Shown here piece after piece: positions 3,656 through 32,532 of a stretch of DNA of 64,000 bases (the stretch's first letter is position 1; each line of letters begins with the position of its first letter). The DNA is from Candidatus Binataceae bacterium (GTDB lineage: Bacteria > Desulfobacterota > Binatia > Binatales > Binataceae), in assembly GCA_963803045.1 (NCBI GenBank), contig CAWDLC010000015.1, positions 10,947-74,946 of the forward strand, given 5' to 3'. The translations under genes and the position numbers were made by a program. Below the pieces are notes generated by a model. It did not search any database. It was not told the origin of the DNA and saw only the letters and a program-made list of their open reading frames with translations.

Positions 3656-4915
3656 ATGATGATCAAATCGCGAACCGCACTGGTGATCGCCACTGCGGTT
3701 TTTCTTTCTTCGAATCTTTACGCCCAAGTCAAGGCAGGCGACGTCATCACTGCGAAGAATGCGGAGCAGGTCCGCTCGCTGGTCCGTCCCGGCACCTTCG
3801 TCGCGGTCGCCAAGGGCATGCAGATGAACATCGTGGCGACGAGCCGCGTCGATTGGCCGCCGCCTTACCAGGATGCGACCGAAAAGTACTCGGGCCAGGT
3901 GCGCCTCGCCCCGGACCATCGCAACCTGCTGGGCTACGTCGCCGGGCAGCCGTTTCCGCTCCTCGATCCCAATGATCCCGATGTCGCGACCAAGATCATG
4001 TGGAACCAGTACTTCAGGCCGATCGCGACCGACGACTTCGATCTGCGCTTCTTCGAATGCCAGGTGGCGAGGCAAAATCCCGGCGCGCAACAGGAGCTGA
4101 TGCTGCTGACCGAGACCGGGCATCTGGCCGGCTATTCCGATATCGGACGTACCGAGGTCGAACCGCTGCCTGCCGACCCGGACTTCAAGACCACCGGCAT
4201 CTGGTCGCGCGTCGGCGCATATCCCACGCTTGCGCCCGCCGAAGATCGCGGGCAGCGGCGGCATCCGCTAGCGCTGCGGGGACCCAAACCGCGGCGAGGA
4301 CGCGTGGGTCTTCTCGGCCGGAACGCGGCGCGTGCGCCGGGTGAACGAGATAAGCATGAGTTCCTCGCCGGGACTTTCGACCTGGGACGCCGATCACGTG
4401 GGCGGATTCGGCGCCAAGCCTCAGGAGTACAACTTCAAGTACCTGGGCGATCGCAACATGCTCGCCTGCGCGCACGCCCGCAACTCGCCAGCCCATCCAT
4501 GCGCCACCGACGGCGGCGCCACCTCATGCCCCGACGATTGGGAGATACGCCATCTCTACGTGGTCGAAGTCACCCCGCGTCCGGAAGGAATCGAGGGCGT
4601 GCTCCAGTCCAAGACCATCGTGTACGTCGACGGCGAGGGGATGGTTCAATCCGTACGTGGACAGCTACGATCGGAAGGGCGAGTTGTGGAAGGTGCAGAT
4701 TTATCTTAACACCTACCGCGATCGCCCGGTGCCCGACGCCAGGATTGCCGTCTATCCGTTCAAGCGTGAATTCAATGTCGCCGCCTCCAGCATCGACGTG
4801 CAATCCGGCATCTCGACCACTTGCTACCTGCCCGGACCGGACACGCCTGAGCGCGAATGCTGGTACATCAACATGGGCGCCGTGGATAAGAGTTTCCTCA
4901 CGACCGAAGCGATGA
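3656..4915 (+). pseudogene. DUF1329 paralog disrupted by two frameshifts and one in-frame TAG
   Basis: Homology to the upstream paralog continues across three frames: frame of 3656 up to about 4247 (…GAYPTLAPAE), frame 0 (…KIAGSGGIR*RCGDPNRGEDAWVFS… with TAG at 4269-4271), and after a G run near 4633 the frame of 4657 (GWFNPYVDSYDRKGELWK…ECWYINMG…SKAGH*). The second half of the ORF-track 419-aa reading frame is Arg-rich out-of-frame sequence. Confidence 0.7.
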
Positions 4916-6812: not shown

Positions 6813-7420
6813 TGCGGGGCGCGTTTTCTCCACCGGGGAGCGCCGCGACCTGCGGCTCTGCCGCGTCGTTATTTTGGTACGCCGCAGCGACTCGTAGAGC
6901 GTGGAACACGCCACGCGCAGGCGGCGCGCGACATCTCCCGGCGATTCGCCGCCTTCGATAGGCGGCGCGCATGCGCGATCTTCTCATCATCGAGTCTGGG
7001 CCTGCGGCCCAGCCTGATGCGGCGCTTTTTCGCGGCAGCCAAGCCGGCGCGGGTGCGCTCCACGATGAGTGAGCGCTCGAATTCGGCCAAGGCCGCCATG
7101 ATGTGCAACACGAAACGCCCACCCGCGCTCTCGGTGTCGATCGGATCGGAAAGCGAGCGGAAGTTGACGCCGCGCTGGCCAAGCGCGGCAATCGTCGCCG
7201 GGAGGTGCGAGAGCGAGCGCCCCAGGCGATCGAGCTTCCGAACAACGAGCGTGTCTCCGGGGCGAAGCGCTTTCAGCGCGCGGGCGAACTGCGGGCGGAA
7301 GACGGCGCTTCCGGTGACGCCGCGGTCGGCAAAAATCTTTTTGCATCCCGCAGCCTTAAGCGCGTCGCGCTGCAGGTTCAGATGCTGGTCAGTGGTGGAG
7401 ACGCGTGCATATCCGATCAT
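6810..7420 (-). CDS. serine recombinase (resolvase/invertase family), apparent 1-nt frameshift near 6945
   Basis: N-terminus MIGYARVSTTDQHLNLQRDAL…GDTLVVRKLDRLGRSL is the classic resolvase catalytic domain. The C-terminal HTH (…IEGGESPGDVARRLRVACSTLYESLRR) is encoded in a different frame from the catalytic domain; junction at the cgccgcc run, stop at 6810-6812. Confidence 0.8.
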
Positions 7421-7427
7421 GTCGAGT

Positions 7428-7453
7428 TGTCGGATGGATTTTTCGGACTGACA
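7428..7453. promoter_or_regulatory. candidate resolvase-type recombination subsite (TGTC…GACA) in the recombinase/cas6 divergent intergenic region
   Basis: TGTCGGATGGATTTTTCGGACTGACA: inverted TGTC/GACA ends about 26 bp apart, the layout of Tn3-family res subsites. It lies 8 bp upstream of the recombinase start. Speculative. Confidence 0.2.
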
Positions 7454-7616
7454 AGCGGTTGATTCCGTTGCGGTTCGGGTTTGTCCTGGAATCGGTCGTT
7501 TTCTGAACACGCCGCCGAAACCAGGGACTGACGATGATTGCAAGAGAGATGATATCCGAATAAAGCCAACCTATCCCTGCTGCGGAAATCGAAGCGGGCA
7601 TGCGGAAGATGGGGGC

Positions 7617-8609
7617 GTGACTGCCATTCCCCAAATACTGTCGTTCACGCGGTACCGCGTCACCTTCGAGGCGATGGAGACACTTGATCTCCCAAGCTAC
7701 CTCGGCTCGACCTTACGCGGCGCGTTTGGGCATGCGTTTCGCGCTGTCGCCTGCCCAGCGCCTCGCGGCCTTGATTGCCCTGTTCCTGCGCGGTGTCCGT
7801 ATCACCTGATATTCGAGACCTCGCCGCCGCCCGGCTCCGAAGCGCTGCGAACGCACGAGGATATTCCACGGCCATTCGTGATAGCGCCGGCGGACCTGCA
7901 GCAGACCGGTGGCGACGGGCAAGTCAGACATGTATTTCAGCGCGGAGATGAGGTCGCGTTCGAGCTTGTGCTGGTCGGCCGCGCCCAGGAATTCTTCCCA
8001 TACTTCGTCGTTGCGTTGCGCGAGGTAAACGAGATTGGGCGCGGACGGCAGGCGGTCGAGTTGCGGCGAATCGACGCAATCGGCGCGACAGGAGACGATT
8101 CTCGCTCCATCTACACTGCGTCGGAAAATTTGGTACGCGGATCGGGAGGAAGCATCAGCATCGAAGACTGCTCGGAAGCGGTGCCCGGCGGACCGCTGAT
8201 GATCGACTTTGTCACTCAAACCAGACTCAAGCACGAGGGCCGGTTTGTACGAACCCCGGAATTTCAGATTCTTTTTCGCAGGCTCCTCGGTCGGCTGTCA
8301 TCACTCTCGAGATTTCATTGCGGAGCGCCGCTGAAGGCGGATTTCCGCGAACTCATCGATCAGGCGGCATCGATTCGCTTGATTCAGGACGACACAAGGT
8401 GGACAAGATGGCAGCGCTACAGTTCGCGCCAGGATCGGCGGATGGAATGGGAGGGAATCGTGGGTCGCGCCACCTACGAAGGCGACTTCGCCCCGTTTTG
8501 CAAGTTCCTCTACTTCGGACAGTTCGTCCACGTCGGCCACGGCGCTACATTTGGCTTGGGGAAATATCGGACAAAACAGGAATCGAATGGTGCTCCTCTG
8601 TCAAAATGA
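7617..8609 (+). CDS. cas6: Cas6 CRISPR RNA endoribonuclease
   Basis: 330 aa with the C-terminal Gly-rich loop FGQFVHVGHGATFGLGKY typical of Cas6; first gene of the cas operon. Confidence 0.75.
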   Translation: MTAIPQILSFTRYRVTFEAMETLDLPSYLGSTLRGAFGHAFRAVACPAPRGLDCPVPARCPYHLIFETSPPPGSEALRTHEDIPRPFVIAPADLQQTGGDGQVRHVFQRGDEVAFELVLVGRAQEFFPYFVVALREVNEIGRGRQAVELRRIDAIGATGDDSRSIYTASENLVRGSGGSISIEDCSEAVPGGPLMIDFVTQTRLKHEGRFVRTPEFQILFRRLLGRLSSLSRFHCGAPLKADFRELIDQAASIRLIQDDTRWTRWQRYSSRQDRRMEWEGIVGRATYEGDFAPFCKFLYFGQFVHVGHGATFGLGKYRTKQESNGAPLSK

Positions 8610-8630
8610 TGCCAGCGGTACCGCCACCGC

Positions 8631-10196
8631 GTGGCCGAGGGCGGCAGGTGTCGCACCGATAGTCTGAGTGCGATGACCCTTCGATACACAGGTCATCCGA
8701 TAGCAGATGTGGGCGTCGCGACCATCTGCGCATTTTCCCAGAAGTCCGACCCGGCGAAGCTAACGCGACACGACCTTAAGCAGATTAGTCGCTTCATGGA
8801 GCGCGAGTACTTCTCTGGAAAGTTGCTGTCATATCTCACTTGCGTTTTTCCTAACGCCGCTTATGTAAACCCAACGATCAGCGAAGGTAAGAAAAAAGAC
8901 TACAAACGCGACATCCTTCAAGGGTTCGAGAATGACCCGGATCCGGCAGCGGCACATTTGAGCTGTGTTTTCTCTGGCCGACCTGCCGCTCGAATTGTCA
9001 ATCGCCAGCACGTTCCCCTCATCACGGGTGAGGGCGTGTTAAATTTCTTCCCTGACGGCGAGAGCGGAATGCCGATCAGCGCTGACTATCTGTTGGCCAT
9101 GCAGGCTTTTCCTCTGGGAGCACGTCGTTGCGTCGGCCGCGCCCTGGCAGTCCATTGTCCGGACGATCAGAGCCTCACATACGAATTTGCGCATCGGTTT
9201 CTCGAAGACAATCGCAAGCTTCTGCTACTCGCTCAGAGGTCCGGAGAAAAATACGAAGACGCCAAAGCGCCTCGGACACTCGTCGTCGATGCATTGATCG
9301 ACATAATGCACAGGAGGGGCCGGTCAACTTCAGCGGGCCACGCTGGCACTCGTGCGTCGGTCACAGTTTACCATCTCACCAATTCCGGACAGGGACCGGA
9401 TATTGATTTGTTCGAACTTCCGAGTGAAGTTGTTTCGTTCCTCGCAAAAGCTTCTCGCGCTGGCAGCTCTGATATCTGGAACAAAATCGTCGCGCGCGCG
9501 TGGGAAACCCCCGCGCCTTCGCACGCGAATGAAACTAAATCTTCCCGCAAAGGACCGAAACGGGAAAAGCCGACGGCGCCTCAAGCAGGCAAGAACCGAA
9601 ACTTTCTTTATGAAGATTTATTCCGGCTGCCGGAAGGCGCCGGCCGCTTTATTCGAACATATTTCTTACGCCGCGCTTGGCGTTTCGCGCGGCAACAAAG
9701 GAACGATCCGCGCGCCGAATACGCGGCGGCTCGAGAGGTCGAACTTGTCTCCTGGCCGCTCACCCATATGTTTCTGAAGGAGGTTCTCGGAATGGACAAC
9801 ACCCGGATTGAAGCGGTCCGCGAATTCGCAGACCGAGTGGCATCTCACATCATATCCGAGAATGATCGGCGGCTCTTTCGCAACCTCTGTATGACAGACA
9901 ATTATCCCGGATTTAGGAATCGCCTTCTCAAGGCCTCGGCTGAGCGTGTGGGCAAGGGAAAGACTCCCCTAACCTCGTTCGACGAATTTGTCCTCGTCTT
10001 CGAAGCCGCCGACGAACGGCCAAGAATCGACCGGAGGCTTGCTATCGATCTTGTGCTCATTCGATTGATCGAAAAACTGTATGCAGACGGGTGGTTCACG
10101 AAAGAACCAGACGCGGTCAAGGATCTGGCCGAAGCAACCGAGGAAACGGCCGATACGCAGTCTGCCGACGCCGACAGATCGAACCAAGCTAGCTAA
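8631..10196 (+). CDS. cas8: Cas8 large subunit (Cas8b-like by position)
   Basis: ~510-520 aa protein between cas6 and cas7 with no other recognisable domain; position and size fit the type I-B large subunit. Start may be 8673 (MTLRYTGHP). Confidence 0.55.
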   Translation: MAEGGRCRTDSLSAMTLRYTGHPIADVGVATICAFSQKSDPAKLTRHDLKQISRFMEREYFSGKLLSYLTCVFPNAAYVNPTISEGKKKDYKRDILQGFENDPDPAAAHLSCVFSGRPAARIVNRQHVPLITGEGVLNFFPDGESGMPISADYLLAMQAFPLGARRCVGRALAVHCPDDQSLTYEFAHRFLEDNRKLLLLAQRSGEKYEDAKAPRTLVVDALIDIMHRRGRSTSAGHAGTRASVTVYHLTNSGQGPDIDLFELPSEVVSFLAKASRAGSSDIWNKIVARAWETPAPSHANETKSSRKGPKREKPTAPQAGKNRNFLYEDLFRLPEGAGRFIRTYFLRRAWRFARQQRNDPRAEYAAAREVELVSWPLTHMFLKEVLGMDNTRIEAVREFADRVASHIISENDRRLFRNLCMTDNYPGFRNRLLKASAERVGKGKTPLTSFDEFVLVFEAADERPRIDRRLAIDLVLIRLIEKLYADGWFTKEPDAVKDLAEATEETADTQSADADRSNQAS

Positions 10197-10210
10197 ATGG
10201 GAGGGAACCA

Positions 10211-11284
10211 ATGGCTTTCGTGACTGGAATGATGCTGATCGAGGCTCCAGCGTCGGCGCTGAACAACGCTGGTGCCGAGGAAGGCGCACCCACCGACAAT
10301 ACAATAGCGGTCAAACGCATCAGAGGCCGCGCCGGAGGCGACTATCCGTACGTGTCGGCCCAAGCCGTTCGCTATTGGCTGAGAACCTATCTCGAGCGAT
10401 CAGTTCCGGACTGGAAGACGGCTCCCGTATTCCGCGAAGCGAAAATCGCATACACCGATGCGAATCCGTTGCGTTGGTGGGACGACGATCTGTTCGGCTA
10501 CATGCGCGCGCCATCTAAGCGCGCTGGTGCTCGCAGTGAGGAGGCGGGAAAGAATCAGACACCAGTGACCGGTGAGATCACGCGTATCTCGCCCCTCAGA
10601 ATGGGTACTCTCGTCTCAATCGGCCCGGTTCGAGTCGTTGACGATTTCGGCACAATGGCGCGGCACGACGGCGATCCAGTTCCGCACGAACATCAGTTCT
10701 ATCGAACTACACTTCAGGGCCTCATTTCCCTGGACCTGTCTACGGCGGGGACATTCTTCAACGGTGGGCGTGTTGGATATCGAAATCTCGATGAAGTCCG
10801 CGTCAAGCTAGCGGTAGAGCAAAAACTCTCGGAAGTCAGTGTCCACGGTCAGCCCGCGTTTCGGCTTCCGATCGTTGAGCGCGCCCGGCGCGTGGCCGCC
10901 CTAGTCAAGGCAATCGGCGAGCTCGAAGGTGGCGCTAAGCTTACCCTGCACTACACGGATGTGACGCCTGGCCTGCTGATTGGCGCCGTGCTCACGGCAG
11001 GGAATAACCCCTTTGCGAGAATCATTCGCCCCAACGCTCAAAGCGACCCAGAAATCGTTATCGATGCTCTCAAAGAGGTCCTGCGCGTGTACAAAGACCA
11101 AATTCTATCAGAGGTGTTTGTCGGGTGGGCAAAGGGATATCTCGACGATCAGCGCAAAAAGGTCGAAGAACTTTCTAAGGACGATTTATCCGGTGCGAAG
11201 CTTCGATGGGGGCATCCCCGCGAAATGATGGCGCAACTTGCCGCCGAGTTGTCGAAGGAAGGCAACCACTCCTGGTACGATTGA
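10211..11284 (+). CDS. cas7: Cas7 backbone subunit (Cst2/DevR-like)
   Basis: 357 aa; N-terminal PYVSAQAVRYWLRTYLE resembles the Cas7 I-A/I-B motif (Y.PYISGQSIRHALR). Confidence 0.8.
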   Translation: MAFVTGMMLIEAPASALNNAGAEEGAPTDNTIAVKRIRGRAGGDYPYVSAQAVRYWLRTYLERSVPDWKTAPVFREAKIAYTDANPLRWWDDDLFGYMRAPSKRAGARSEEAGKNQTPVTGEITRISPLRMGTLVSIGPVRVVDDFGTMARHDGDPVPHEHQFYRTTLQGLISLDLSTAGTFFNGGRVGYRNLDEVRVKLAVEQKLSEVSVHGQPAFRLPIVERARRVAALVKAIGELEGGAKLTLHYTDVTPGLLIGAVLTAGNNPFARIIRPNAQSDPEIVIDALKEVLRVYKDQILSEVFVGWAKGYLDDQRKKVEELSKDDLSGAKLRWGHPREMMAQLAAELSKEGNHSWYD

Positions 11285-11285
11285 A

Positions 11286-12035
11286 ATGGAGGTCCTTCGC
11301 GTAGAACTGGAAGTGCCGGTCTGCTCGTTCCGTTATCCGCATTTTCTGGTAGGCCGGCAGCTCACGTTTGATATGCCGCCGCCCGCGACAATTTATGGTC
11401 ATGTTGCGAGCGCGCTTGGAGACTTCCCCGATCCGCGCAGTTTTCGATTCGCATATACGTTCACGGCCACGGGCAAAGGAGAAGACCTCGAAAATCAGCA
11501 CATCATTGTGCCCGGTGGTAGCCGTCCATTTGCGGTCGGCGGCGCTGCCTACCCGTCGTCGACCAGCGCGACCGTGCAACCAACGCATCGCCAATTCCTA
11601 TTCGGCTGCCGCTTGACGCTTTATGTCGATCGACTCGATTTCGAAGAGGCATTTCGAAAACCTCGTTTCACAGTGGTCCTCGGCCGCTCACAAGACCTAG
11701 CAGCATATGGCAGGGTTGAAAGAGTCGAACTTCTCTCGGCGGAACTCGGATACTACGAGGATACGATTCTCCCTGCAGATTTCCGCCGCCGCACGGGCCG
11801 GGGCACCACCGTGCTGATGCCTCGGTACGTTGCCCCACCTCCTCAGCGAGAGACGGCCTTCGAACGCTATATCGTGCTTCGCGATCGCATTTTCGACGGT
11901 TCCAGCACCGCTAGTGACCTAGGCAGCCGTCAGATGCTTCGCTTCGAGGGAGAAAGCACAAAGCTTCTTGTCGATCCAGACTCCCCGCAATGGCGCGGCG
12001 CACACCGTGCGCTGGCATTTCATTCCTTCGCCTGA
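11286..12035 (+). CDS. cas5: Cas5
   Basis: MEVLRVELEVPVCSFRYPHFLVGRQLTFDMPPPATIYGHVASALG is the typical Cas5 N-terminus. ATG 11286 lies just after the cas7 stop. Confidence 0.8.
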   Translation: MEVLRVELEVPVCSFRYPHFLVGRQLTFDMPPPATIYGHVASALGDFPDPRSFRFAYTFTATGKGEDLENQHIIVPGGSRPFAVGGAAYPSSTSATVQPTHRQFLFGCRLTLYVDRLDFEEAFRKPRFTVVLGRSQDLAAYGRVERVELLSAELGYYEDTILPADFRRRTGRGTTVLMPRYVAPPPQRETAFERYIVLRDRIFDGSSTASDLGSRQMLRFEGESTKLLVDPDSPQWRGAHRALAFHSFA

Positions 12036-12042
12036 ACAGCTG

Positions 12043-14358
12043 ATGCTATCCACGGAGTCACGCAGGGTGCTCGCCAACATATGGGCGAAGAGTCCTAATC
12101 CGAATGAATCGACCGGCGAAACACTCTTGGTGCACACAGCCTCAGTCTTGTCCAGATTGGAAAGGTTATTCGATGTTCTGCCAGGACTCGCGGCCCGCGT
12201 TGGTGATATCCGCCTCTGGCATCGCGCAGCTCTTGCTTGTGTTCTGCACGACCTCGGGAAAGCAGCAGCAGGATTTCAGCGCGTGCTCAGAGAGAACGGC
12301 ACACGATGGAGCCATCGTCACGAAGTTCTTTCCCTCGCATTCCTCGATTGGGCGCTCCACAGGGACTTCGACGGTGATCTTCCTTGGGTAGCGGCAGGGA
12401 TCGTTTCGCATCACAAGGACATTGCGACCATCGACTGTCTCTATCCGCAAGCAGAAGAGCCGAAGAATGATCCCTTCGATCCGGTAACCAAGCTTGTTGC
12501 TGAAATACCTGATGGTGTTGCCGCAGCTCTTGCCGAATTCATCTGTTCCGAGATTCTGGACTGGTTGTCAAGGACACGTTTGCCTATTTTCGGAATCTCA
12601 CCGGCGATTCCGTCTGATCCCGCAGCGGATTTTCGCGCGAACGCAGTGATGCGCACCTACTCTGCCTTAGCTCGTTATCACAGTCTCTTCGATTCCCTTG
12701 AACGAGAACCATCCGAGTCAGCATCGAACCTTTCCGCGCTAGCACTCAGGGGCATCGTACTCCTCGCCGATCACACGGCCTCAGCCCACGTCACGCCGCC
12801 GCGCTTACCAGGCCATGACATAGCTAGGATTCTCGAACGGCTTAACCTACGTGCCGAAAGCCTGCACGGTCATCAGAAGACCGCGGCAACAGTACAGGGC
12901 AACACGGTGCTGGCCGCACCGACAGGCAGTGGCAAGACTGAGGCAGCGCTGCTCTGGTCAGCCAACCAGCGCGGCAATTCCCCGGCCGGCCGACTATTTT
13001 ACGTTCTCCCCTATCAAGCAAGCATCAACGCGATGTACGACAGGCTCACAAGGGTCTTTCCGCAACTGGTTACCCTCCAGCACTCACGCGCCGCGCAGGC
13101 TCTTTACCGTCGTCTTCTCGAAACCGACCGCTATGACCCATTAGCTGCCGCGAAGACTGCTCGCTTCCAACGTTCTCTCGCTCATCTGCACTTTCATCCG
13201 GTCCGTGTCCTTACTCCTTATCAATTGCTACGGAGCGCGTTTCGGCTCCGCGGATATGAGTCGATCATCGCCGACGCGACCAACGGGCTCTTTGTCTTTG
13301 ACGAAATCCACGCATACGAACCTGCCCGTCTAGGGATGATCCTCGGAATGTCAGAATACCTCTCGCGCCAGCTGGGTGGGCGCTTCATCGTAATGTCGGC
13401 CACCTTCCCAAGTGTCTTGCGAAGGGTCCTGAACGACTCCCTCGCCGCACCTCATCACATTTTCGCCGACGCAGCCTTGTATCAGAGCTTCGCCCGACAT
13501 CGCCTCGAGTTCGTTACCGGACGGATCGATGACGCTTCAATACTGGACAGAGTGTTTGGGCTCGCTCTTTCTGGCCAATCCGTGCTGGTGGTATGCAACA
13601 CCGTTTCCCGTTGTAAGCGCGTGCATCGCTTGCTTACCCCTTTGCTCGCGCAGCATGGCATCCAACCCGAAATCCTCCACAGCCGGTTCAATTCGCGTGA
13701 TCGACATCACAAAGAACGCATATTGGCCTCGCGGATGGGCACCAAAGAACGCCGGACTGCAGTGCCTCCGGTCGTGCTGGTTGCCACGCAAGTTGTCGAG
13801 GTCAGCCTGGATATTGACTTCGATACGATATTCACCGAGCCAGCCCCTCTCGAGGCGCTGATTCAGCGCTTCGGCAGGGTCAATCGCGCACGCAAAAAGC
13901 CGCCTTGTCCAGTATGTGTTCTCACGTCTCCGGCCTCTGGCCAGGGCGTCTACCGGGACTCGTTCGTCACCGCCGCGATTGATGTCCTCCTCCCTTGCAA
14001 CGGTACTGTGCTCGACGAATCGAAGCTGGGCGAATTGCTCGACCGGGTTTACTCGGGGGAAATCGAGCGCAACTGGATCGCCGAAGTGCAATATGGACGG
14101 GACGAGTTCATTGCGTCGTGCCTAAGCGACTTGCGCGCTTTCCAGTCAAAGCCCGAACTCGCCGAACAGTTCGATCGTCTGTTTGACGGCACTGAGGTCC
14201 TTCCCGAGAGCTTCGTCAATGAGTATGACCAACTAATGGAACGAGAACCGCTTAGGGCTTCCGAGCTTTTCGTACCGATCCCATTCCATCAGCTTGCTCG
14301 CCTTAGACGTGAAGGAAAAATCGATAAGCATCCCGATCGAGCAAGCGTTGATTGCTAA
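12043..14358 (+). CDS. cas3: Cas3 fused HD nuclease + SF2 helicase
   Basis: HD motifs LHDLGK…HHKD; helicase motifs VLAAPTGSGKTEAALLW (Walker A), FVFDEIHAYE (DExH), VMSATFP (motif III). Confidence 0.9.
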   Translation: MLSTESRRVLANIWAKSPNPNESTGETLLVHTASVLSRLERLFDVLPGLAARVGDIRLWHRAALACVLHDLGKAAAGFQRVLRENGTRWSHRHEVLSLAFLDWALHRDFDGDLPWVAAGIVSHHKDIATIDCLYPQAEEPKNDPFDPVTKLVAEIPDGVAAALAEFICSEILDWLSRTRLPIFGISPAIPSDPAADFRANAVMRTYSALARYHSLFDSLEREPSESASNLSALALRGIVLLADHTASAHVTPPRLPGHDIARILERLNLRAESLHGHQKTAATVQGNTVLAAPTGSGKTEAALLWSANQRGNSPAGRLFYVLPYQASINAMYDRLTRVFPQLVTLQHSRAAQALYRRLLETDRYDPLAAAKTARFQRSLAHLHFHPVRVLTPYQLLRSAFRLRGYESIIADATNGLFVFDEIHAYEPARLGMILGMSEYLSRQLGGRFIVMSATFPSVLRRVLNDSLAAPHHIFADAALYQSFARHRLEFVTGRIDDASILDRVFGLALSGQSVLVVCNTVSRCKRVHRLLTPLLAQHGIQPEILHSRFNSRDRHHKERILASRMGTKERRTAVPPVVLVATQVVEVSLDIDFDTIFTEPAPLEALIQRFGRVNRARKKPPCPVCVLTSPASGQGVYRDSFVTAAIDVLLPCNGTVLDESKLGELLDRVYSGEIERNWIAEVQYGRDEFIASCLSDLRAFQSKPELAEQFDRLFDGTEVLPESFVNEYDQLMEREPLRASELFVPIPFHQLARLRREGKIDKHPDRASVDC

Positions 14359-14429
14359 GGTGCCATACACTGATGAGGGGCTTGTGACAGAAGCGTCGGG
14401 CTACGATTAATTGTATTTGGGGAACCACC

Positions 14430-15608
14430 ATGAACTCTGTCATCATCTCAGATTATGGCGTGATGCTTGCCAAGAAGGGCGAGCGCCTCGTCATCCGCGG
14501 ACCCCGACCGCGACTTGAGCTGATCGAGGGCGGCCCGCAACTGTTTTTGCCCATCGGCATCAACGCCAAACGCCCTACCCTCACCGTTCTCACATCTGAA
14601 GGTCCCAAGACGCCGCCGCCTCCGCTGCGTCGTTCGGTTCCCGATGGTAACGGGGCCAAACCGCCCAAGAAATCGCCCGACGAGGTCGAACTGCCGCTGT
14701 TCCGGGTCGGCGAAATCGTGATCGGCTCGCCTGGTGTCTCCCTCTCCGCCGATTTGGTCGAAGCATGTTGCGAGCGTGGGATTCGCCTCTCGTTCCTCAC
14801 GCGATCCGGCAAACCCTACGCGATGCTCTCCTCGCCCATGCTGACCGCGACTGTGATGACACGGCGCGAACAGTTGGCTGCTTACAACGATTCGCGCGGC
14901 GTTGAGCTCGCCAAGTCAATCGTTCGCGGCAAGCTCGGCAACCAGGCCTCGCTCCTCAAATACTTCGGTAAGTACCTCAAGGAATCGAATCCTCCTGTCT
15001 ATGACGAGTTGAGTACGCTCGCGAAGTCGCTCGGCAAAGGCCGTGCGGACGCCAAGCGGATCAACGAACCGAATATTGACGCTGCGCGCGAAGCGTTGCT
15101 CTCGGTCGAAGGACTCGCCGGCCGCACGTATTGGAAGGGCGTTCGCCTGCTAGTGCCGGAGAATCTCGGCTTCGGGTCGAGAGAGCATCGCGGCGCCCCC
15201 GATCCAGTAAACTCCGCGCTCAACTACGGCTATGGAATTCTGTACACGCAGGTCTGGGGCGCGATCATGAACGCGGGTCTAGAGCCGTTCGCAGGATTCC
15301 TGCATGTCGATCGGCCCGGTAAGCCTTCGCTGGTGCTCGACATGGTCGAGGAATTTCGCCAGCCGGTTGTCGATCGGGCCGTGATCGCCTTGATCGGGCG
15401 TGGCACCGCAATTGAGACGCATGAAGGAATGCTCACGGATGACACCCGCCGTAATGTTGCGTCGGCCGTGCTGGAGCGAATCGAGAGCGACGTAAACTTC
15501 CGCGGACGGCGTTATAAGCTCAAGTCGGTCATCCAGATCCAGGCGCGCAATCTGGCGTCGTTCCTGCGCGAAGGCGGTAGCTATCGCACCTTCTCATTCA
15601 AATGGTGA
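14430..15608 (+). CDS. cas1: Cas1 integrase with ~45-aa Pro/Lys-rich insertion near the N-terminus
   Basis: 392 aa (typical 320-340). Conserved Cas1 core (…EACCERGIRLSFLTRSGKPY…, …NSALNYGYGILYTQVW…, …FLHVDRPGKPSLVLDMVEEFR). Extra segment PIGINAKRPTLTVLTSEGPKTPPPPLRRSVPDGNGAKPPKKSPDEVE encoded about 14550-14700. Confidence 0.9.
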   Translation: MNSVIISDYGVMLAKKGERLVIRGPRPRLELIEGGPQLFLPIGINAKRPTLTVLTSEGPKTPPPPLRRSVPDGNGAKPPKKSPDEVELPLFRVGEIVIGSPGVSLSADLVEACCERGIRLSFLTRSGKPYAMLSSPMLTATVMTRREQLAAYNDSRGVELAKSIVRGKLGNQASLLKYFGKYLKESNPPVYDELSTLAKSLGKGRADAKRINEPNIDAAREALLSVEGLAGRTYWKGVRLLVPENLGFGSREHRGAPDPVNSALNYGYGILYTQVWGAIMNAGLEPFAGFLHVDRPGKPSLVLDMVEEFRQPVVDRAVIALIGRGTAIETHEGMLTDDTRRNVASAVLERIESDVNFRGRRYKLKSVIQIQARNLASFLREGGSYRTFSFKW

Positions 15609-15611
15609 CTC

Positions 15612-15884
15612 ATGCGCGGCCAAGATCTGCTCACGTTCATCGTCTATGACATCACCGATGACAAGATCCGGCTCAAAATCGCCGACGTGTGCAAGGATTA
15701 CGGCCTCGATCATATCCAGTACAGCGTGTTCAGCGGTCCGCTCGATTCAACTCGGCGTAATGAGATGTTCGCACGGCTCGACCATACGCTCGGAAACAAC
15801 GAGGGCAAGGTATTGATGCTGCAAATCTGCGAGAAAGACGTTGCGGCCAAGCGCGAAATCGTCCGAATCATTGATTTGGAATGA
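15612..15884 (+). CDS. cas2: Cas2
   Basis: 90 aa, MRGQDLLTFIVYDITDDKIRLKIADVCKDYGL…; directly follows cas1. Confidence 0.8.
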   Translation: MRGQDLLTFIVYDITDDKIRLKIADVCKDYGLDHIQYSVFSGPLDSTRRNEMFARLDHTLGNNEGKVLMLQICEKDVAAKREIVRIIDLE

Positions 15885-16484
15885 ACATCGACCATCATAG
15901 TGCACGGCAGTTTGAGCTGACGGTTACCGACCTGAAGCAATGGGCTTACTGCCCGCGCATCCCGTACTACCATCATGTGATGCCGGTAGAGATCGCGCGT
16001 ACCTACAAGATGGAACGCGGCAGAGCTGTCGAGGCCGCAGTCCAGGCGATGGAGAAGCGCCGGGGCTTTCGGCGTTACGGCCTCGACAGCGGAGAGCGCC
16101 GATTTGGCGTCTGGCTAAGCTCGGCTGCGCTCGGACTCTCGGGCAAGCTCGACCTGCTCATCGTTACTGAGGACGCGTGCTATCCAGTCGACTTCAAAGA
16201 CACCGAGGGCGGTGTCCGCTACAACCATCGCATCCAGCTCGCCGCCTACGCTGTGCTCGTCGAGGAGAACTTCGCTCGCCCGGTGCCAATCGCTTTCGTT
16301 TACCTCGTACCGTCTCGGCAGCTTGTCACGGTGCCGGTCGGCGTGAAGGAAAGGGAAGAAGTGACGCGCGCAGTAGTGGAGATGCGCCGGGTCATCGAGC
16401 GGGAAAACATGCCCGGCCCAACGCCGGTCCGAGCGCGATGACGTTGCGTGCGAATTCCGCAACTACTGTGCGGACATTTGGTGA
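15881..16484 (+). CDS. cas4: Cas4 (RecB-like nuclease), frameshifted near 16430 so the C-terminal Cys motif lies in another frame
   Basis: ATGA overlap with cas2. N-terminal Cys (WAYCPRIPYY), RecB motifs (…DLLIVTEDACYPVDFKDTE…, QLAAYAVL). Main frame stops at 16441; the +1 frame 16437-16484 encodes DDVACEFRNYCADIW*, the expected C-x5-C Fe-S ligand cluster. Confidence 0.75.
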
Positions 16485-16585
16485 TCTTCGCAAAAGGAGG
16501 CCAATTTGATGCAAACTTGGGTGTTGCGAAAAATTCCACTGGCATTCGCCGCCAAAAGCCGCGATTTTTCGAGACTATTGCAGCG

Positions 16586-17515
16586 GCTTCAAACCGATCC
16601 CCGATGAGGAGGGGACTGAAATTTTTCAGGCACCGGGCACGCTCGCTTTGATGGCGTCGAGCTTCAAACCGATCCCCGATGAGGAGGGGACTGAAATCCT
16701 GGGCCGCTCGGATGACCGAGATCGCGCGGGCGCGGCTTCAAACCGATCCCCGATGAGGAGGGGACTGAAATTGTTTTTCGGAGGGTCCGGGATTCGACGG
16801 CGCTAAAGCTTCAAACCGATCCCCGATGAGGAGGGGACTGAAATCTCCTAATCAGCGCAGAGCGGCGCGGCAGCGTCGCCCGCTTCAAACCGATCCCCGA
16901 TGAGGAGGGGACTGAAATTCAACTCGGCGATCTGCTCAAGAGTCCGCCCGCCCGTTGCGCTTCAAACCGATCCCCGATGAGGAGGGGACTGAAATCTGGC
17001 GCGCTCTTGACGGCCTGGACCGGGTTCGTGGCGAGCTTCAAACCGATCCCCGATGAGGAGGGGACTGAAATAACGCGCCGCCGCAGCTGTCGAGGTAAGA
17101 ACCAATGGCTTCAAACCGATCCCCGATGAGGAGGGGACTGAAATGTGGATGCCTCATCGGCTCATGTATGCACATTATGGCTTCAAACCGATCCCCGATG
17201 AGGAGGGGACTGAAATGGAAAGAACCCCGGTGGCCCCCACCACAATCGCCAGTGCTTCAAACCGATCCCCGATGAGGAGGGGACTGAAATGTGTGGATCT
17301 CTCATCTGGAGCGTGACCAGAAGAAGCAAGCTTCAAACCGATCCCCGATGAGGAGGGGACTGAAATTGGCTGTCGCGGTCGGAGTTGGCGACGTTGCCTC
17401 ATACGCTTCAAACCGATCCCCGATGAGGAGGGGACTGAAATAATAATAAACAGGTTGAACAACCCCAAGACTTACAATGCTTCAAACCGATCCCCGATGA
17501 GGAGGGGACTGAAAT
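16586..17515 (+). CRISPR. CRISPR array, 13 repeats of 37 bp, 12 spacers of 35-40 bp
   Basis: Repeat GCTTCAAACCGATCCCCGATGAGGAGGGGACTGAAAT at 16586, 16661, 16735, 16808, 16882, 16959, 17035, 17108, 17180, 17254, 17330, 17405, 17479, all identical. Internal CCCC-GATGAGGA-GGGG hairpin; 3-prime end CUGAAAU resembles a Cas6-type 8-nt handle. About 100-bp leader after cas4. Confidence 0.95.
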
Positions 17516-17567
17516 GATGCTCGCCGAAGCGGCGAGGTCACTAAAAAAGGGCATTTCGTTACATGAG

Positions 17568-19214
17568 TTAGCGATGACGTTCGCAAGCCGCTTTGGCTGC
17601 GGCATCTCCAACGGGGATAGGGGTCAGCTTCTCCTGACGTTGAAAATTTCCAGTTGCCTGAACGTCGTCAGAGCGCTCGTCGAAACCTTCAAATGAGTCG
17701 CGAACGATGGTTTCAAGCATACCGACCTCGCGGTCGCTGAGCTTCTTGTATTCGTTGGCGCGCCGTTTCTTCGGCAGCGTCCCATTGTTTTGCCGTATAA
17801 ACATAACGAGATTTTCCGCAAGCCGGTCCGGCATCTCGACGGCTTCCATTACGCGGCTGAGCGCCTCGTCGTGACAGCGTAGATAATCAATCTCTCGCGG
17901 CAGGTCTTGCTGGACGGTCCGCAAAACGCAGGCATAGAGAAACTCAGCGTTGTCCGTGCAGTCGAAGTAGCGGTATAGATCGCCGGTCTCGTTCAAAACC
18001 TCTACATTGCGGTCGGGAGTTGGACGCCAGTCAATGAAGGCCATGAGCGGGCTCGAATGAGTCTGTAGGGTTGTACGGTAATCATCGATCCGATCGAGCA
18101 TTACGGATGAGACCGGAAAAATCATTCCCGGCGGGGTGAATTTCCGCTCGGCAAGAACATGATGGATGAGGCAGCGGTGAAGTCGTCCATTTCCGTCCTC
18201 GAACGGATGAATGTAGACAAATCCGAAGGCGGTGGCCGCCGCTTGCAGCACGGGATCCAGACCGGCATCGCGCATGCGGTCGTTTGCTTGCAGCATATTG
18301 GCGATTAAATCGTTGAGGTCCTCGGGCCGGGCTCCGATGAATTCTGGTAATGGGCCACCTTGCTGATCCCGCTCGCCTAGGAACACGCCATCGGAGCGCA
18401 CACCGGCGCGCACAAACCGCGTGTCTTCGATCAGAATGGCCTGAAGGCGGATGATTTCTTCAAAAGTCAGCTTGTTCTTGCCAGCCTGAAGAACAGCGCG
18501 GCCCCACCGCTCCAGCCGGTTGCGCGGTGGCCGCACGCCCTCGATTTCGAAGCTCGCACGGCTATCGGCCAAGAGCATGAAACTCGCCGCGCGCGCGACG
18601 AGATGCGCGCCGGTGCGGCCGATGGTCTGAGCTGCTTCTTTAGCGATGTCGCGGGCAACAAAAGCCTCCAAGGCCTTCGTCCGGCGGATCACTGGGCAAA
18701 AGCGTCCCGTCCCGAGCAGGTTGTCGCGAACCCGGTGCCGCTTGGACAGGCGCGGATTGCCGGTGAAATAGGTTTTCTGGTCGAGAACGTCGATCGCAGC
18801 GACCTCCGGCGCATCGGACACCTTTAGTGTTCGGTCCGTGAGGGTTTCGTATAGAAACCAAGCGCGCCGCGTGGTGGTGCCTGATGGTGCGGCACGGACG
18901 AAGGCCTCCATTGTGTTGGGGCTGACCGCTTCGAAGACGCGCTTCAATATCAATGGCTCAAAGTCTTCGTGCCGGAGAGCGAACGGCAGGTGATCGGCAA
19001 ACGTGTCTCCGGGCCAATATCGCCTGTCGAATACGGTCCAGGCACCTTCTTTCCGATGACTGCCGCGTATATGCTTCTCAGAGACACAGGATGGCCGCCT
19101 GATGGGTGCTTGGACCGAAAGTGCGTGTGCAAGGGCAGCCAAGCCGGCGAGCTTCGTGCCGCTCGGCACAATTTTTTCCTGAAAGGTTGCGACTTGGTCT
19201 GTTTTAAGGTTCAT
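17568..19214 (-). CDS. Fic family protein (Fic/DOC domain)
   Basis: 548 aa with the canonical Fic motif HPFEDGNGRLHR; stop 52 bp from the last CRISPR repeat. Confidence 0.85.
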   Translation of the reverse strand: MNLKTDQVATFQEKIVPSGTKLAGLAALAHALSVQAPIRRPSCVSEKHIRGSHRKEGAWTVFDRRYWPGDTFADHLPFALRHEDFEPLILKRVFEAVSPNTMEAFVRAAPSGTTTRRAWFLYETLTDRTLKVSDAPEVAAIDVLDQKTYFTGNPRLSKRHRVRDNLLGTGRFCPVIRRTKALEAFVARDIAKEAAQTIGRTGAHLVARAASFMLLADSRASFEIEGVRPPRNRLERWGRAVLQAGKNKLTFEEIIRLQAILIEDTRFVRAGVRSDGVFLGERDQQGGPLPEFIGARPEDLNDLIANMLQANDRMRDAGLDPVLQAAATAFGFVYIHPFEDGNGRLHRCLIHHVLAERKFTPPGMIFPVSSVMLDRIDDYRTTLQTHSSPLMAFIDWRPTPDRNVEVLNETGDLYRYFDCTDNAEFLYACVLRTVQQDLPREIDYLRCHDEALSRVMEAVEMPDRLAENLVMFIRQNNGTLPKKRRANEYKKLSDREVGMLETIVRDSFEGFDERSDDVQATGNFQRQEKLTPIPVGDAAAKAACERHR

Positions 19215-19216
19215 CT

Positions 19217-19350
19217 GTCGAAAACTCTTTAGCTCGGTCGAAAAGCGTTTGGTTTTTCCGTGATATGTCGAAATTCAATATACAACACTATTTGGTCGAA
19301 ATCCAGTCATCTTGGTCGAAATATCGTGCGGCGCGCGACTTTCGGTCGAA
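19217..19350. promoter_or_regulatory. six direct copies of (G)GTCGAAA in the AT-rich region immediately upstream of the fic start
   Basis: TGTCGAAAA 19217, GGTCGAAAA 19247, TGTCGAAAT 19267, GGTCGAAAT 19293, GGTCGAAAT 19313, GGTCGAAAA 19343; spacings 30/20/26/20/30 bp. Confidence 0.45.
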
Positions 19351-19928
19351 AAATGCTCTAATCCTAGGCGAAGAGGTCGGGTCAGAATCCTGGCGGAGCT
19401 AGCTGAGCTTGCACGTCCGGGGCGTTAATCCGATCACACTCAAATTCGCCGACACCATCTAGGCATCGCGGCAGGCGTCCACTATCTCTCAGATCGGGAT
19501 CACGAAACTTGAAACTATGCTGGCTAGCGAGCCGTCCGCGCGAATATTACGCTGTCACGGCATGAAACAGACTGACGATTCTGAGCGTATTGAACCGCGG
19601 GCGTCATCACTCATTCCTTCTCTGCGATCCGTCGGTTACAGCCTAGGCCTGATAGTCGCTTAGCGCGTGTGTTCCATGATCTGTATGGTGCCGGCGGGAT
19701 TGTCGGTATTGATATGAGCTGCGTAGGTTCTTGCGCCGTGAATGAACAGGTCCGGGACGGGCGCTGCCGGTTTCTCGCGGCGGCGGGCGGAACCCTCTGC
19801 CCTCGGTACGGACACCCGTTGTCATCCATGCGCCGTATAAGAAAGTCTCGAACTTCAGTACGAGGGGAACCGGTGCGAACGGCGCCTTCCGCGCCGTCGG
19901 GAGCCTTTCATGAAAATGATGCTTTCAC

Positions 19929-19950
19929 CAAACGGTCAAACCGTTTGCGC
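19929..19950 (-). terminator. possible intrinsic terminator downstream of trbL
   Basis: Perfect hairpin AAACGGT-CAA-ACCGTTT about 80 nt downstream of the trbL stop, followed by a T-rich stretch on the minus strand. Confidence 0.25.
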
Positions 19951-20029
19951 AGACGCGATGGCCCGTGGCTATGTCCTTCAGGTTTTGTATCAAGCCGGGG
20001 ATCGCGAAGTCCGGGCGAGCTTGTGATCC

Positions 20030-21124
20030 TCACAGAAGACCGGTCTGGGCGGTGGCCCTAGGCTGTTGAGTAGCCGAGCCGCGACCAGCACGGGCCGTTT
20101 GGCTTCCGTTCGGGGTGGGCGAGGAAATGACGTTACCGCTTGCGGGCATCCGTACCGTGGGCCGGGATGAGGCCGAGCCGCCGTGGTTGTTGGCGGTGGC
20201 TCTGTCGCCAGCTTCGAGACTTGCGCCCAGCGAGTGGCTGCCTTGAGTTGAAGAACCGGATTCCGCTCCCACCGACTTCTGGCTCGTGAGAATTCGGCCC
20301 AAACCATAGCCCGCCATCGCGGCTTCGAATGCGTGGCTCAGATTTAGCGAAACGGCACCGCCAACGACCGAGGCGGCGGTGTTCGGAATCGTCCACGTGA
20401 GAAGCATAAAGATAAGAGCGCCGCCCGCAATGGTCAGAGGGAGCGTTGGATCCGCGACCGTCCATCCCGTTAGCGCGGAGTTCCAGCCGGCAATGATCGT
20501 CATGCCCACGCCAACGAGCAGGTATAGGAAAAAAAGCTTGATGCCGACTCCGACGATCCAGCCGAGGAAACCCTCAGCAAACTTGATCGTCCATCGAGAA
20601 CCGCTGAAGCCTAATATCAGTACGCCACCGCCAACGCCGATATACGCCTCGGAAAGTGCGAGCAGCATTTGCCCGGCGATGAGAGCAAACGAAAGGAACA
20701 TGATCAGCCCCGCTACGAGAGCAATCAGCGATGCGATCGTGAGGTGAAACCACCCCAAACTCCCGAAGCCGCGATAGATCGTCTGAAACATCGCGAGGCC
20801 ATCGTTGAACACTGTGCTCGGGCTAAGGTCGGGAATCCCGGCCGCTTGTCCCCCAATCTGCTGAAAGCCTTGGATGATTGCGCTGAACCAGATCGGCGCA
20901 TTCACGATCATTGCGTACAGAAAGCCGAACGCGAGAGATTTCTTTACAAATTCTACCAGCAGGCGTGATGGATCTTCCTGATCGGTGAGGAAATGAACAC
21001 AGGTGATGACAATTTCGATGAGTACCAAGCCGAAGAATATCTTCTCGGCGAAGGGCTGCATGATCGCCATGTAGCGCTGGCCTGCCCACTGAAACGTCTG
21101 ACCGATATTGTCGAGGTTGTTCAT
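20030..21124 (-). CDS. trbL: TrbL/VirB6 conjugative T4SS inner-membrane protein
   Basis: 364 aa polytopic membrane protein with the TrbL-like hydrophobic core and a Ser/Gly/Ala/Thr-rich C-terminal tail. Confidence 0.8.
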   Translation of the reverse strand: MNNLDNIGQTFQWAGQRYMAIMQPFAEKIFFGLVLIEIVITCVHFLTDQEDPSRLLVEFVKKSLAFGFLYAMIVNAPIWFSAIIQGFQQIGGQAAGIPDLSPSTVFNDGLAMFQTIYRGFGSLGWFHLTIASLIALVAGLIMFLSFALIAGQMLLALSEAYIGVGGGVLILGFSGSRWTIKFAEGFLGWIVGVGIKLFFLYLLVGVGMTIIAGWNSALTGWTVADPTLPLTIAGGALIFMLLTWTIPNTAASVVGGAVSLNLSHAFEAAMAGYGLGRILTSQKSVGAESGSSTQGSHSLGASLEAGDRATANNHGGSASSRPTVRMPASGNVISSPTPNGSQTARAGRGSATQQPRATAQTGLL

Positions 21125-21133
21125 CGCAAGTCC

Positions 21134-21475
21134 TCAATGAGTCTCTTGCGCGTTGGGAGAGGGGACCGGCACGAGTCCGCCGCCTAAGCCGTTAGGGGGC
21201 ATAGTCGTCGAGAACGGGACTCGAGGCGCGGCGGCTGCCAGTACCGGCTGACAGTTGATTAAGAACTTGTGATCGGCCTGCTGGCAAAAGCCGAGCGCTT
21301 TTCCCCAAAGCTCCGTTTTTCTCTGAAGTTGTTCGTTCCAGAACTGGTCGCCGTAGTTTTCCGCGGCGTTGGGGGACTGCAGCGCAGCGAGCGGAGCACT
21401 GGTGTCGTCGGATTTGCCATTGCAGGCTCCGAGGAGAAGGGCAACGGTCAGTATGCAAAACTTGAGTCCTTTCAT
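21134..21475 (-). CDS. small lipoprotein, TrbK-like by position (entry exclusion)
   Basis: 113 aa; lipobox LLLGACNG; sits between trbJ and trbL as TrbK does in Ti-type trb operons. Confidence 0.45.
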   Translation of the reverse strand: MKGLKFCILTVALLLGACNGKSDDTSAPLAALQSPNAAENYGDQFWNEQLQRKTELWGKALGFCQQADHKFLINCQPVLAAAAPRVPFSTTMPPNGLGGGLVPVPSPNAQETH

Positions 21476-21486
21476 AGAGCTCCCGT

Positions 21487-24713: not shown

Positions 24714-24725
24714 TGTTGCTGTCTC

Positions 24726-25064
24726 CTAGTACTTCCGAAGCCTCGGCACTGCCGGATGAACCGGCGCTGGTGGAGCGGTGATCCCGGCGCGTGGCGGATA
24801 GTACCGCTGGTAATGCAAGTGCCGGATGTAAACCTCGCTCAGTTGCGCATCGAACTTGGCTGCCTGTCGAAGCGCCCAGTGACCCGCGGTGCCCAGGATC
24901 GTCGCGATCGCAACCGTGTATAGATGTAGGCCGACGCCGAAAATCAGCGCTGCGACTATCAGCCAGTTCAGGATTGCGAGCCGCCGCTCGGCGCCGCCAA
25001 GCAAGACCGGCCGCGTGAGCGCCTGATGGATCAGCGTTCGTTGAACCTCGGTGTCCATCGCCAC
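24726..25064 (-). CDS. trbD: TrbD/VirB3-like
   Basis: 112-aa small membrane protein immediately upstream of trbE. Confidence 0.7.
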   Translation of the reverse strand: MAMDTEVQRTLIHQALTRPVLLGGAERRLAILNWLIVAALIFGVGLHLYTVAIATILGTAGHWALRQAAKFDAQLSEVYIRHLHYQRYYPPRAGITAPPAPVHPAVPRLRKY

Positions 25065-25083
25065 ATCCGATCCGGTCGCCTGC

Positions 25084-30411: not shown

Positions 30412-30414
30412 AAC

Positions 30415-31024: not shown

Positions 31025-31049
31025 GGTACGGTAAAACCTTTATCTTGCC

Positions 31050-32529: not shown

Positions 32530-32532
32530 GAT

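Follow-up and report, generated by a model that had tools for sequence, protein, structure and literature searches.

Type I-B CRISPR-Cas systems are conventionally drawn with the gene order cas3-cas4-cas1-cas2, a layout that describes the subtype without defining it. Within this subtype, the 'Tneap' group with a Cas8b1/Cst1 large subunit is exemplified by Thermotoga maritima and by the Clostridium thermocellum loci with 37-nucleotide (nt) repeats. The hallmarks of type I-A are Cas8a, Csa5 (a separate Cas11), and usually split cas3' and cas3'' genes; those of type I-C are Cas8c, Cas5c as the processing enzyme, and a missing cas6. The locus described here occupies positions 7617-17515 of a 64,000-nt stretch of contig CAWDLC010000015.1 (assembly GCA_963803045.1, Candidatus Binataceae bacterium), the whole of which is called the window below. 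A CRISPR subtype is set by the composition of its effector, and adaptation modules are free to recombine (PMC5704561). On this basis, the window most probably carries a complete type I-B locus (Cas8b1/Cst1, 'Tneap'-like) of a Binatia-like soil bacterium, with a gene order that is a trait of its adaptation-module lineage and not the mark of a new system.

Effector module and subtype assignment

The open reading frames (ORFs) of the window were identified using three profile libraries, NCBIfam (TIGR), Pfam, and PADLOC. The eight proteins of the locus were then mapped onto related loci, labelled L0xx, which comprised 32 genome loci found via Cas1 and nine metagenome loci (L001-L006 among them). 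The ORF list and the profile matches confirmed the positions of the eight cas genes on the + strand given in the first-pass annotation, as well as the ATGA coupling of cas2 and cas4, seen where the cas2 stop overlaps the cas4 start. The elements of the locus are listed below with amino acid (aa) ranges where relevant.

7617-8609, + strand: cas6 (endoribonuclease processing CRISPR RNA, crRNA); PADLOC Cas6 PDLC01477, 310 bits, aa 8-320; Pfam CRISPR_Cas6, 67 bits
8631-10196, + strand: cas8b (Cas8b1/Cst1-type large subunit); likely start ATG 8673
9792-10196, + strand: putative Cas11b, an internal in-frame ORF of 134 aa within cas8b; ATG 8 nt after AAGGAGG
10211-11284, + strand: cas7 (Cst2/DevR type, Cascade backbone); TIGR02585, 166.1 bits; PADLOC Cas7b, 166 bits
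11238-12035 (ORF from TTG 11238), + strand: cas5 (Cas5b/Cas5t); likely start ATG 11286
11968-14358 (ORF from TTG 11968), + strand: cas3 (fused HD nuclease and helicase); likely start ATG 12043
14430-15608, + strand: cas1, 392 aa; TIGR00287, 240.8 bits; Pfam Cas_Cas1, 221.5 bits
14499-14687, + strand: region coding for the Pro-rich Cas1 insertion, aa ~24-86; profile and PDB alignments resume at aa 85-97
15612-15884, + strand: cas2; TIGR01573, 48.5 bits against a cutoff of 24.5; Pfam CRISPR_Cas2, 63 bits
15881-16484 (ORF 15881-16441, 186 aa), + strand: cas4; TIGR00372, 95.2 bits; a 14-codon tail lies in the next frame
16485-16585, + strand: CRISPR leader, ~100 nt, from the ancestral cas4 stop to the first repeat
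16586-17515, + strand: CRISPR array of 13 repeats (37 nt) and 12 spacers (35-40 nt); 13 identical copies of GCTTCAAACCGATCCCCGATGAGGAGGGGACTGAAAT

The likely start of cas5, ATG 11286, lies 2 nt past the cas7 stop. All cas ORFs except cas4 are intact and of full length against their profiles.

The type I-B assignment of the first-pass annotation was borne out, since the best profiles of Cas8b, Cas7, Cas5, and Cas3 are all I-B. Cas8b matched the PADLOC CAS-I-B large-subunit profile PDLC01387 with 484.3 bits (aa 17-503 on profile positions 2-475 of 477) and exceeded the NCBIfam Cas8b1/Cst1 cutoff (TIGR01908; 40.1 vs. 19.4 bits). The Cas7 score on the I-B Cst2/DevR model (TIGR02585) was clearly above the cutoff of 72.75 bits. 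The best match of Cas5 was PADLOC Cas5b (PDLC01197, 151.8 bits), an I-B Cas5 in that library. Cas3 matched PADLOC Cas3b (PDLC01761) with 646.5 bits over aa 36-785, and its single ORF holds both the HD domain (TIGR01596, 80.8 bits) and the helicase core (TIGR01587, 235.5 bits). The profiles covered Cas8b, Cas3, and Cas7 nearly end to end and ~75% of the Cas5 ORF. The gene composition is likewise that of type I-B, with cas6 present, a single fused cas3, and no separate cas11. Homologues of Cas8b with 40-58% identity, found in Nitrospira tepida, Rubrobacter naiadicus, and various metagenome-assembled genomes (MAGs), are labelled 'type I-B Cas8b1/Cst1' by NCBI, and JGI gives the same name. Signatures of types I-A, I-C, I-D, and I-G were not detected in the effector proteins of the window with the profile libraries, and these assignments were dropped on the profile results.

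It is extremely improbable that the locus belongs to type I-A or I-C, which its adaptation genes resemble, and is wrongly labelled I-B. Such a reading draws on Cas1, which scored 166 bits on the I-C Cas1 model and 94.7 bits on the I-B (HMARI) one, on the cas1-cas2-cas4 order, which is that of type I-A, and on the presence in relatives of cassettes matching Cas8a and Cas5a profiles. However, both Cas1 scores are far under the subtype cutoffs (385 for I-C and 304 for I-B (HMARI)), and it is the effector module, not the adaptation genes, that sets the subtype. No match to Cas8a, Cas8c, or Csa5 was obtained in the window, where Cas8a occurs only as a legacy label of the Cst1 model. Moreover, the window has a cas6, which type I-C lacks, and its cas3 is fused in one gene, whereas the I-A cas3 is usually split.

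Compared with the Cas8b1/Cst1 'Tneap' I-B systems, the locus has the same effector set (cas6 and cas8b1-cas7-cas5-cas3 with one fused HD-helicase Cas3). It likewise contains cas1, cas2, and cas4, an internal start inside cas8b in place of a separate cas11, and a 37-nt repeat with a hairpin and an 8-nt 3' tail resembling AUUGAAAC. The differences are the cas1-cas2-cas4 order (cas4-cas1-cas2 there), the ~60-aa insertion in Cas1, the predicted handle ACUGAAAU, and the frameshifted cas4.

No extra ORF was found between the cas genes of the window, in agreement with the earlier remark that a separate cas11 is missing. Cas11 is made by internal translation in types I-B, I-C, and I-D (bioRxiv 10.1101/2020.04.18.045682; PMC11899642; PMC13199841). 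In the window, ATG 9792 (Cas8b residue 374, counted from ATG 8673) follows AAGGAGG at a distance of 8 nt, and translation from it would yield 134 aa; the same arrangement of ATG and AAGGAGG is repeated at this site in L013, L015, and L038. Of 119 aligned Cas8b1 homologues, 114 have Met and 5 have Val in the corresponding column; the N-terminal start aside, it is the only one to reach 80% Met. Given this conserved internal Met with its Shine-Dalgarno sequence and the published internal translation in type I-B, a Cas11b is probably produced from within cas8b in this bacterium as well. A comparative start signal of this kind could aid the expression of Cas8b1-type Cascades.

Adaptation-gene order and proposed exchange of effector cassettes

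The ORFs and profiles of the window confirmed that cas1-cas2-cas4 follow cas3, unlike in the textbook layout. The order turned out not to be unique to the window, because it occurs identically in public MAG loci. The full arrangement cas6-cas8b-cas7-cas5-cas3-cas1-cas2-cas4-array was also found in the Binatia loci L010, L013, L015, L021, and L032 and in the Rokubacteria loci L007, L025, and L027, the latter three having another type of Cas8b. In every related locus showing all three genes (~25 loci), cas1, cas2, and cas4 stand in that order on one strand. They are contiguous in most related loci; in L014, L016, L017, L018, and L026 and in the metagenome loci L001-L006, cas1 and cas2 are several kb apart. 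Nearly all of the 32 genome loci belong to MAGs labelled Candidatus Binatus, Binataceae, Rokubacteria, Methylomirabilia, or unclassified (delta)proteobacteria.

More distant systems also have this order. In type I-A, csa1-cas1-cas2-cas4 is standard in Sulfolobus (PMC5587795), and Pyrobaculum has cas4'-cas1-cas2-cas4 (PMC3396285). The Cas8b1 locus of Rubrobacter naiadicus reads WYL-cas1-cas2-cas4-csa1-cas8b1-cas7-cas5-cas3-csm6-cas6. A contig with a Cas8b named by NCBI for Nitrospira tepida contains cmr genes, cas6, and cas8b1-cas7-cas5-cas3, with no adaptation genes adjacent. As in the I-A operons and the Rubrobacter locus, the three adaptation genes of the window share one order and one operon. 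Unlike those loci, the window has no csa1 or cas4', its effector is I-B and not I-A, and its adaptation module lies downstream of cas3 and adjoins the leader; the Rubrobacter Cas1 differs further in having 329 aa and no insertion. Cas4 phylogenomics has described several typical adaptation-module arrangements common to subtypes, together with 'rampant shuffling' with effector modules (PMC5704561). Since the cas1-cas2-cas4 order is kept in all related loci and is known in type I-A and in the Rubrobacter Cas8b1 locus, it is not new; it is the fixed layout of one adaptation-module lineage, widespread although few studies have dealt with it, and not a functional novelty.

The insertion that had been noticed in Cas1 proved to be real. 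The closest solved structure to the Cas1 of the window is that of the archaeal A. fulgidus protein (PDB 4n06, 192 bits), relative to which ~60 residues (aa ~24-86) are inserted within the N-terminal beta domain, between the first beta strands and the 'ELPLFRVGEIVIG' strand. Throughout the clade, the insertion consists of a conserved motif, LELIEGGPQLFLP, followed by a variable Pro/Lys-rich part. The best 120 Cas1 cluster representatives all had at least 53% identity (most of them 64-94%) and were nearly all ~390 aa long, and the insertion is common to more than 100 such ~390-aa representatives from Binatia and Rokubacteria. Four residues that are probably catalytic, E227, H292, D304, and E307, do not vary across the family alignment. 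An AlphaFold2 model built from 71 sequences had an overall predicted local distance difference test (pLDDT) value of 82.7 with a confident core; within the insertion, pLDDT was 47-67, except for ~83 in a short strand region at aa 51-60. The insertion travels with the adaptation module rather than with the I-B effector, and therefore it does not define an I-B variant. It marks a large Cas1 clade with a conserved N-terminal-domain insertion, a characterization of which was not found in the literature.

The first-pass annotation had suggested an undescribed I-B variant. This was not upheld, given that the effectors fit existing I-B profiles, the gene order is common to relatives, and 37-nt repeats are known in type I-B. 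In a fuller form of this idea, the cas3-cas1-cas2-cas4 layout, the 37-nt repeat, and the Cas1 insertion would be parts of one co-evolved I-B sub-variant, which is very unlikely. The departure from the textbook drawing and the clade-wide insertion speak for it; in addition, no published description of Binatia CRISPR-Cas was found in the literature, and the repeat of the window scores under every Rfam gathering threshold. Nevertheless, the effector proteins score high on existing I-B profiles, and the same adaptation module, cas6, and repeat are paired with I-A-like, other I-B, III-A, and III-C effectors, so that layout, repeat, and insertion do not co-define one effector variant. Cas8b1 cassettes also occur with a normal 329-aa Cas1 (Rubrobacter) or without adjacent adaptation genes (the Nitrospira-related contig). 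The effect on CRISPR classification is thus small: the locus files under I-B (Cas8b1), and the odd order belongs to a shuffled adaptation module. At the same time, the locus is a record of CRISPR-Cas for Binatia, a phylum whose CRISPR systems are essentially absent from the literature.

Identity to the relatives differs along the locus. Relative to L010-L012, the window showed 92-94% identity in Cas1, 97-99% in Cas2, 88-90% in Cas4, and 74-79% in Cas6, with the leader and repeat in common. The effector proteins were 36-55% identical to those of L010 and only 36-57% identical to those of the Binatia loci L010, L013, L015, and L032 taken together. Except for a distant Cas3 (28%, part of the protein), equivalents of these effector genes are missing from L011 and L012; the cas3-first cassette layout seen in both carries I-A-like Cas8a and Cas5a in L001. 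The cas6 product keeps 70-79% aa identity to that of relatives with different effector cassettes. In L038, a Binataceae MAG locus, DNA identity to the window was 84.7% over 8673-14486, a span that begins at the cas8b ATG and takes in the first 57 nt of cas1.

The Binatia and Rokubacteria loci built on this plan share with the window the Cas1 clade, the 3' two-thirds of the repeat, and a related leader; they differ from it in having an intact cas4 and no spacers in common. In L007, L025, and L027, Cas8b belongs to another family (PDLC01109), and toxin-antitoxin and DUF433 genes lie inside the locus. In the composite type I and type III loci L001 and L004, cas6, the Cas1 clade, cas2-cas4, the position of the leader, and the repeat family are as in the window, which differs by its single I-B cassette and contiguous cas1-cas2-cas4.

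Several features of individual relatives were recorded beside these comparisons. A Csm (III-A) module with a Cas02710-family (Csm6-like) gene lies between cas1 and cas2-cas4 in L001 (11338-18875), and a Cas10c (III-C) module occupies the same place in L004 (11198-18337); both are downstream of an I-A-like cas3-cas8a-cas7-cas5a set. L038 contains 3' pieces of cas6 before the cassette (3-281, 2198-2385, and 4047-4216) and 5' pieces of cas1 after it (10001-10072, 10219-10278, and 11002-11220). Extra 5' fragments of cas1 were found in L034 (2097-2246) and, as orphans, in L041 (8064-8123 and 10001-10245), where the surrounding ORFs gave no defence-profile matches. No partial cas6 or cas1 remnants were found in the window itself. 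Toxin-antitoxin-like genes (RHH+PIN, ParE, and AbiEii) and DUF433 genes were observed in L007 (2078-2736 and 9584-9853), L006 (7696-8004), and L042 (8159-9504). They lie at the cas6/effector or cas3/cas1 junctions, where cassettes appear to be exchanged.

The stacked cas6 and cas1 fragments look like recombination scars of cassette exchange, and the few loci available suggest that effector cassettes may be swapped via recombination in the conserved cas6 and cas1 flanks. The cas8b-to-cas3 block of the window behaves as one such cassette, and the adaptation module moves with cas6, the leader, and the repeat. A wider view, in which Binatia and Methylomirabilota share a docking frame with cas6 as one flank and cas1 (with its insertion)-cas2-cas4-leader-repeat as the other, and cassettes are swapped by homologous recombination, is possible, if less likely than not. 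Two I-B families, the I-A-like set, III-A, and III-C would be exchanged at the 3' end of cas6 and the 5' end of cas1. The scars in L038, L034, and L041 would be remnants of such exchanges, and the sharp identity boundaries in the window would fit. The ~60-aa Cas1 insertion might be tied to the promiscuous partnership, and the copy in the window would be an instance riding beside a conjugative element. If so, these loci would show cleanly how effector cassettes are exchanged in nature while the cas6 and cas1 flanks stay fixed, and the type III modules that sit inside the adaptation operon in relatives would be part of this.

Cas4, the CRISPR array, and predicted activity

Four conserved cysteines are present in every Cas4 family protein (PMC5704561). 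The Cas4 of the window ends in ...PTPVRAR at 186 aa, whereas eleven relatives end in ...RARCxxCEFRN(Y/F)CxDIW at 198-201 aa. In a DNA alignment with seven relatives, one extra A at ~16441 was present in the window only and yields a TGA stop; the displaced tail, CEFRNYCADIW and a stop codon, is readable in the next frame up to 16484. The three C-terminal iron-sulfur (Fe-S) cysteines (CxxCx5C) are consequently lost from the predicted protein, which keeps the N-terminal Cys24 and the RecB motifs GKLD, VDFK, and QLAAY of this PD-(D/E)xK nuclease family. The description of cas4 as the last gene before the leader thus stands with regard to order, but the ORF end is premature. As the ancestral cas4 stop lies at 16484, the leader measures ~100 nt (16485-16585) and not 144 nt. 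A metagenome scan did not find the frameshift site with or without the extra base, and no exact matches to Cas8b, Cas1, or the truncated Cas4 of the window are on record. The extra A may be either a sequencing or assembly error or a very recent inactivating mutation. If it is genuine, Cas4 would lack three Fe-S cysteines out of four, and acquisition is probably impaired or no longer PAM-selective (PAM, protospacer adjacent motif); interference guided by the 12 spacers already acquired would not be affected.

The array had been described as 13 identical 37-nt repeats with 12 spacers, and this was confirmed; it lies at 16586-17515, all 12 spacers are unique, and no further copy of the repeat occurs elsewhere in the window. 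The predicted fold of the repeat is a CCCC/GGGG stem closing an 8-nt loop, followed by the 8-nt tail ACUGAAAU. The stated length of 37 bp was correct, but the I-B norm of ~30 bp set beside it was incomplete: 37-nt I-B repeats have been published for M. maripaludis C5 and two C. thermocellum loci, with processing by Cas6b to an 8-nt 5' tag (PMC3479195). The same publication ruled out the repeat length as a sign of novelty. None of the Rfam CRISPR-DR families reached its gathering score for the repeat of the window; the 37-nt CRISPR-DR32, which has the same hairpin, aligned with it end to end on the + strand at a sub-threshold 20.5 bits (E = 0.37). Throughout the 25 related loci where a repeat was found, the 3' part, CCCCGATGAGGAGGGGACTGAAA, is the same whatever the effector, a few copies deviating by at most one substitution; the 5' 13 nt are variable among them. 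The leader differs by few substitutions from those of L010, L011, L012, and L035, with which it aligns closely. A scan of 7200-17700 detected no sigma-70 consensus promoter, a consensus that says little for this phylum.

The uniformity of the array is compatible with recent activity, as had been suggested. None of the spacers of the window recurs in the locus of any relative, the closest ones included, which is consistent with turnover.

A decaying locus that has lost adaptation, with a genuine cas4 frameshift, stopped or error-prone acquisition, and a short relic array on a mobile element, is somewhat unlikely. The 1-nt insertion, which deletes three of the four Fe-S cysteines kept in 11 of 11 relatives, would fit this explanation, as would an array of 12 spacers compared with 19-61 repeats in several relatives, the lack of a detectable target for any spacer, and the resolvase and conjugation genes at the flanks, which suggest recent horizontal arrival. 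On the other hand, every other cas ORF is intact, all 13 repeats are identical, the last one included, and the leader is conserved. The cas4 tail is itself intact in the next frame and has the same end as in relatives, which fits a very recent mutation or a sequencing error, and interference is independent of Cas4.

In a complete Cas8b1-type I-B locus, the array would be transcribed from the ~100-nt leader, judging from what is known of the family. Cas6 would bind the CCCC/GGGG hairpin and cut 8 nt before the 3' end of the repeat, giving a crRNA with a 5' ACUGAAAU handle. On this crRNA, Cas5, several copies of Cas7, Cas6, Cas8b, and the internally translated 134-aa Cas11b would form Cascade. 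Cas8b would read the PAM, and the R-loop would then recruit the fused HD-helicase Cas3, leading to degradation of the target DNA. Judging from other Cas8b1 systems (PMC13199841), the PAM would be expected on the 5' side, rich in pyrimidines and distinct from the AAT that derives from the repeat. New spacers would be added at the leader end by Cas1-Cas2, with Cas4 normally selecting and trimming PAM-containing prespacers.

Some observations weigh against a complete I-B locus with an inherited gene order. Cas5 falls under the TIGR01895 Cas5t cutoff (81.8 vs. 96.7 bits), although it passes the generic TIGR02593 Cas5 domain (41.3 vs. 17.8 bits). The picture of cassette exchange is based on a few dozen MAG loci rather than on a phylogeny. 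The cas4 frameshift could be an assembly or sequencing error, and apparent frameshifts in cas genes also occur in several of the MAG loci, e.g., L010, L021, and L038. Expression, processing, interference, and adaptation are all attributed to the locus by homology. Finally, no protospacer was found in phages, plasmids, IMG/VR, the window, or the related loci, so no PAM was derived. In these searches, the whole array gave chance matches only (E ≥ 0.3) against cultured phages and nothing against plasmids, and five scans of IMG/VR for exact matches to spacer segments of 22-25 nt were empty. The window and the first 41 related loci contained no spacer match at up to six mismatches, and the 311 unique spacers of relatives gave only partial matches of at most 19 nt to the window.

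A single exact copy of the repeat was observed in soil-metagenome contigs of 1.5-4.5 kb, namely in L044 (2839-2875, - strand), at the same locus in L045, L047, L048, and L050, and in L049; none of these contigs had a cas-gene match anywhere. In L044, a remnant, '...ACTGAAAT', and a 37-nt spacer-like segment come before the repeat and make it a mini-array, and ~11 nt identical to the trailer of the window come after it. Contigs of the L044 type may represent a decayed array or an orphan mini-array.

Genomic neighborhood

The locus is flanked on both sides by genes of mobile-element type:

6869-7543, - strand: small serine recombinase (Resolvase, 148 bits), immediately upstream of the CRISPR locus
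17568-34149, - strand: conjugative-transfer cluster (Trb/VirB type), downstream of the array
17568-19214, - strand: Fic, within the conjugative-transfer cluster

In addition to Fic, the transfer cluster encodes TrbL/VirB6, VirB4/TrbE, VirB11/TrbB, a VirD4/TraG coupling protein, a MobA/VirD2-like relaxase, a TraF-like peptidase, TrbI/VirB10, TrbG/VirB9, and VirB8. Beyond it, housekeeping genes and two tRNA-Arg genes were found. No tyrosine integrase was detected among the window ORFs tested, and 4000-36500 contained no convincing flanking direct or inverted (att-like) repeats. From its gene content, the region may represent an integrative conjugative element with the CRISPR locus as cargo.

In L012, which has the same repeat as the window and a 92% identical Cas1, a trbL fragment (13544-14049, - strand) lies directly after the array and is 61-78% identical to the TrbL of the window. 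This hints at an older link between the CRISPR frame and the conjugative cluster.

Farther downstream, a 421-aa TIR-domain protein (TIR_2, 87 bits) is encoded at 48940-50205 on the - strand, ~1.7 kb from a tRNA-Arg gene (51916-51992, - strand), and is possibly part of another defence gene. A partial tRNA match at 60097-60155 (- strand; Rfam 37.6 bits, model positions 8-63), for which ARAGORN made no call, may be a tRNA fragment, e.g., the remnant of an integration site.

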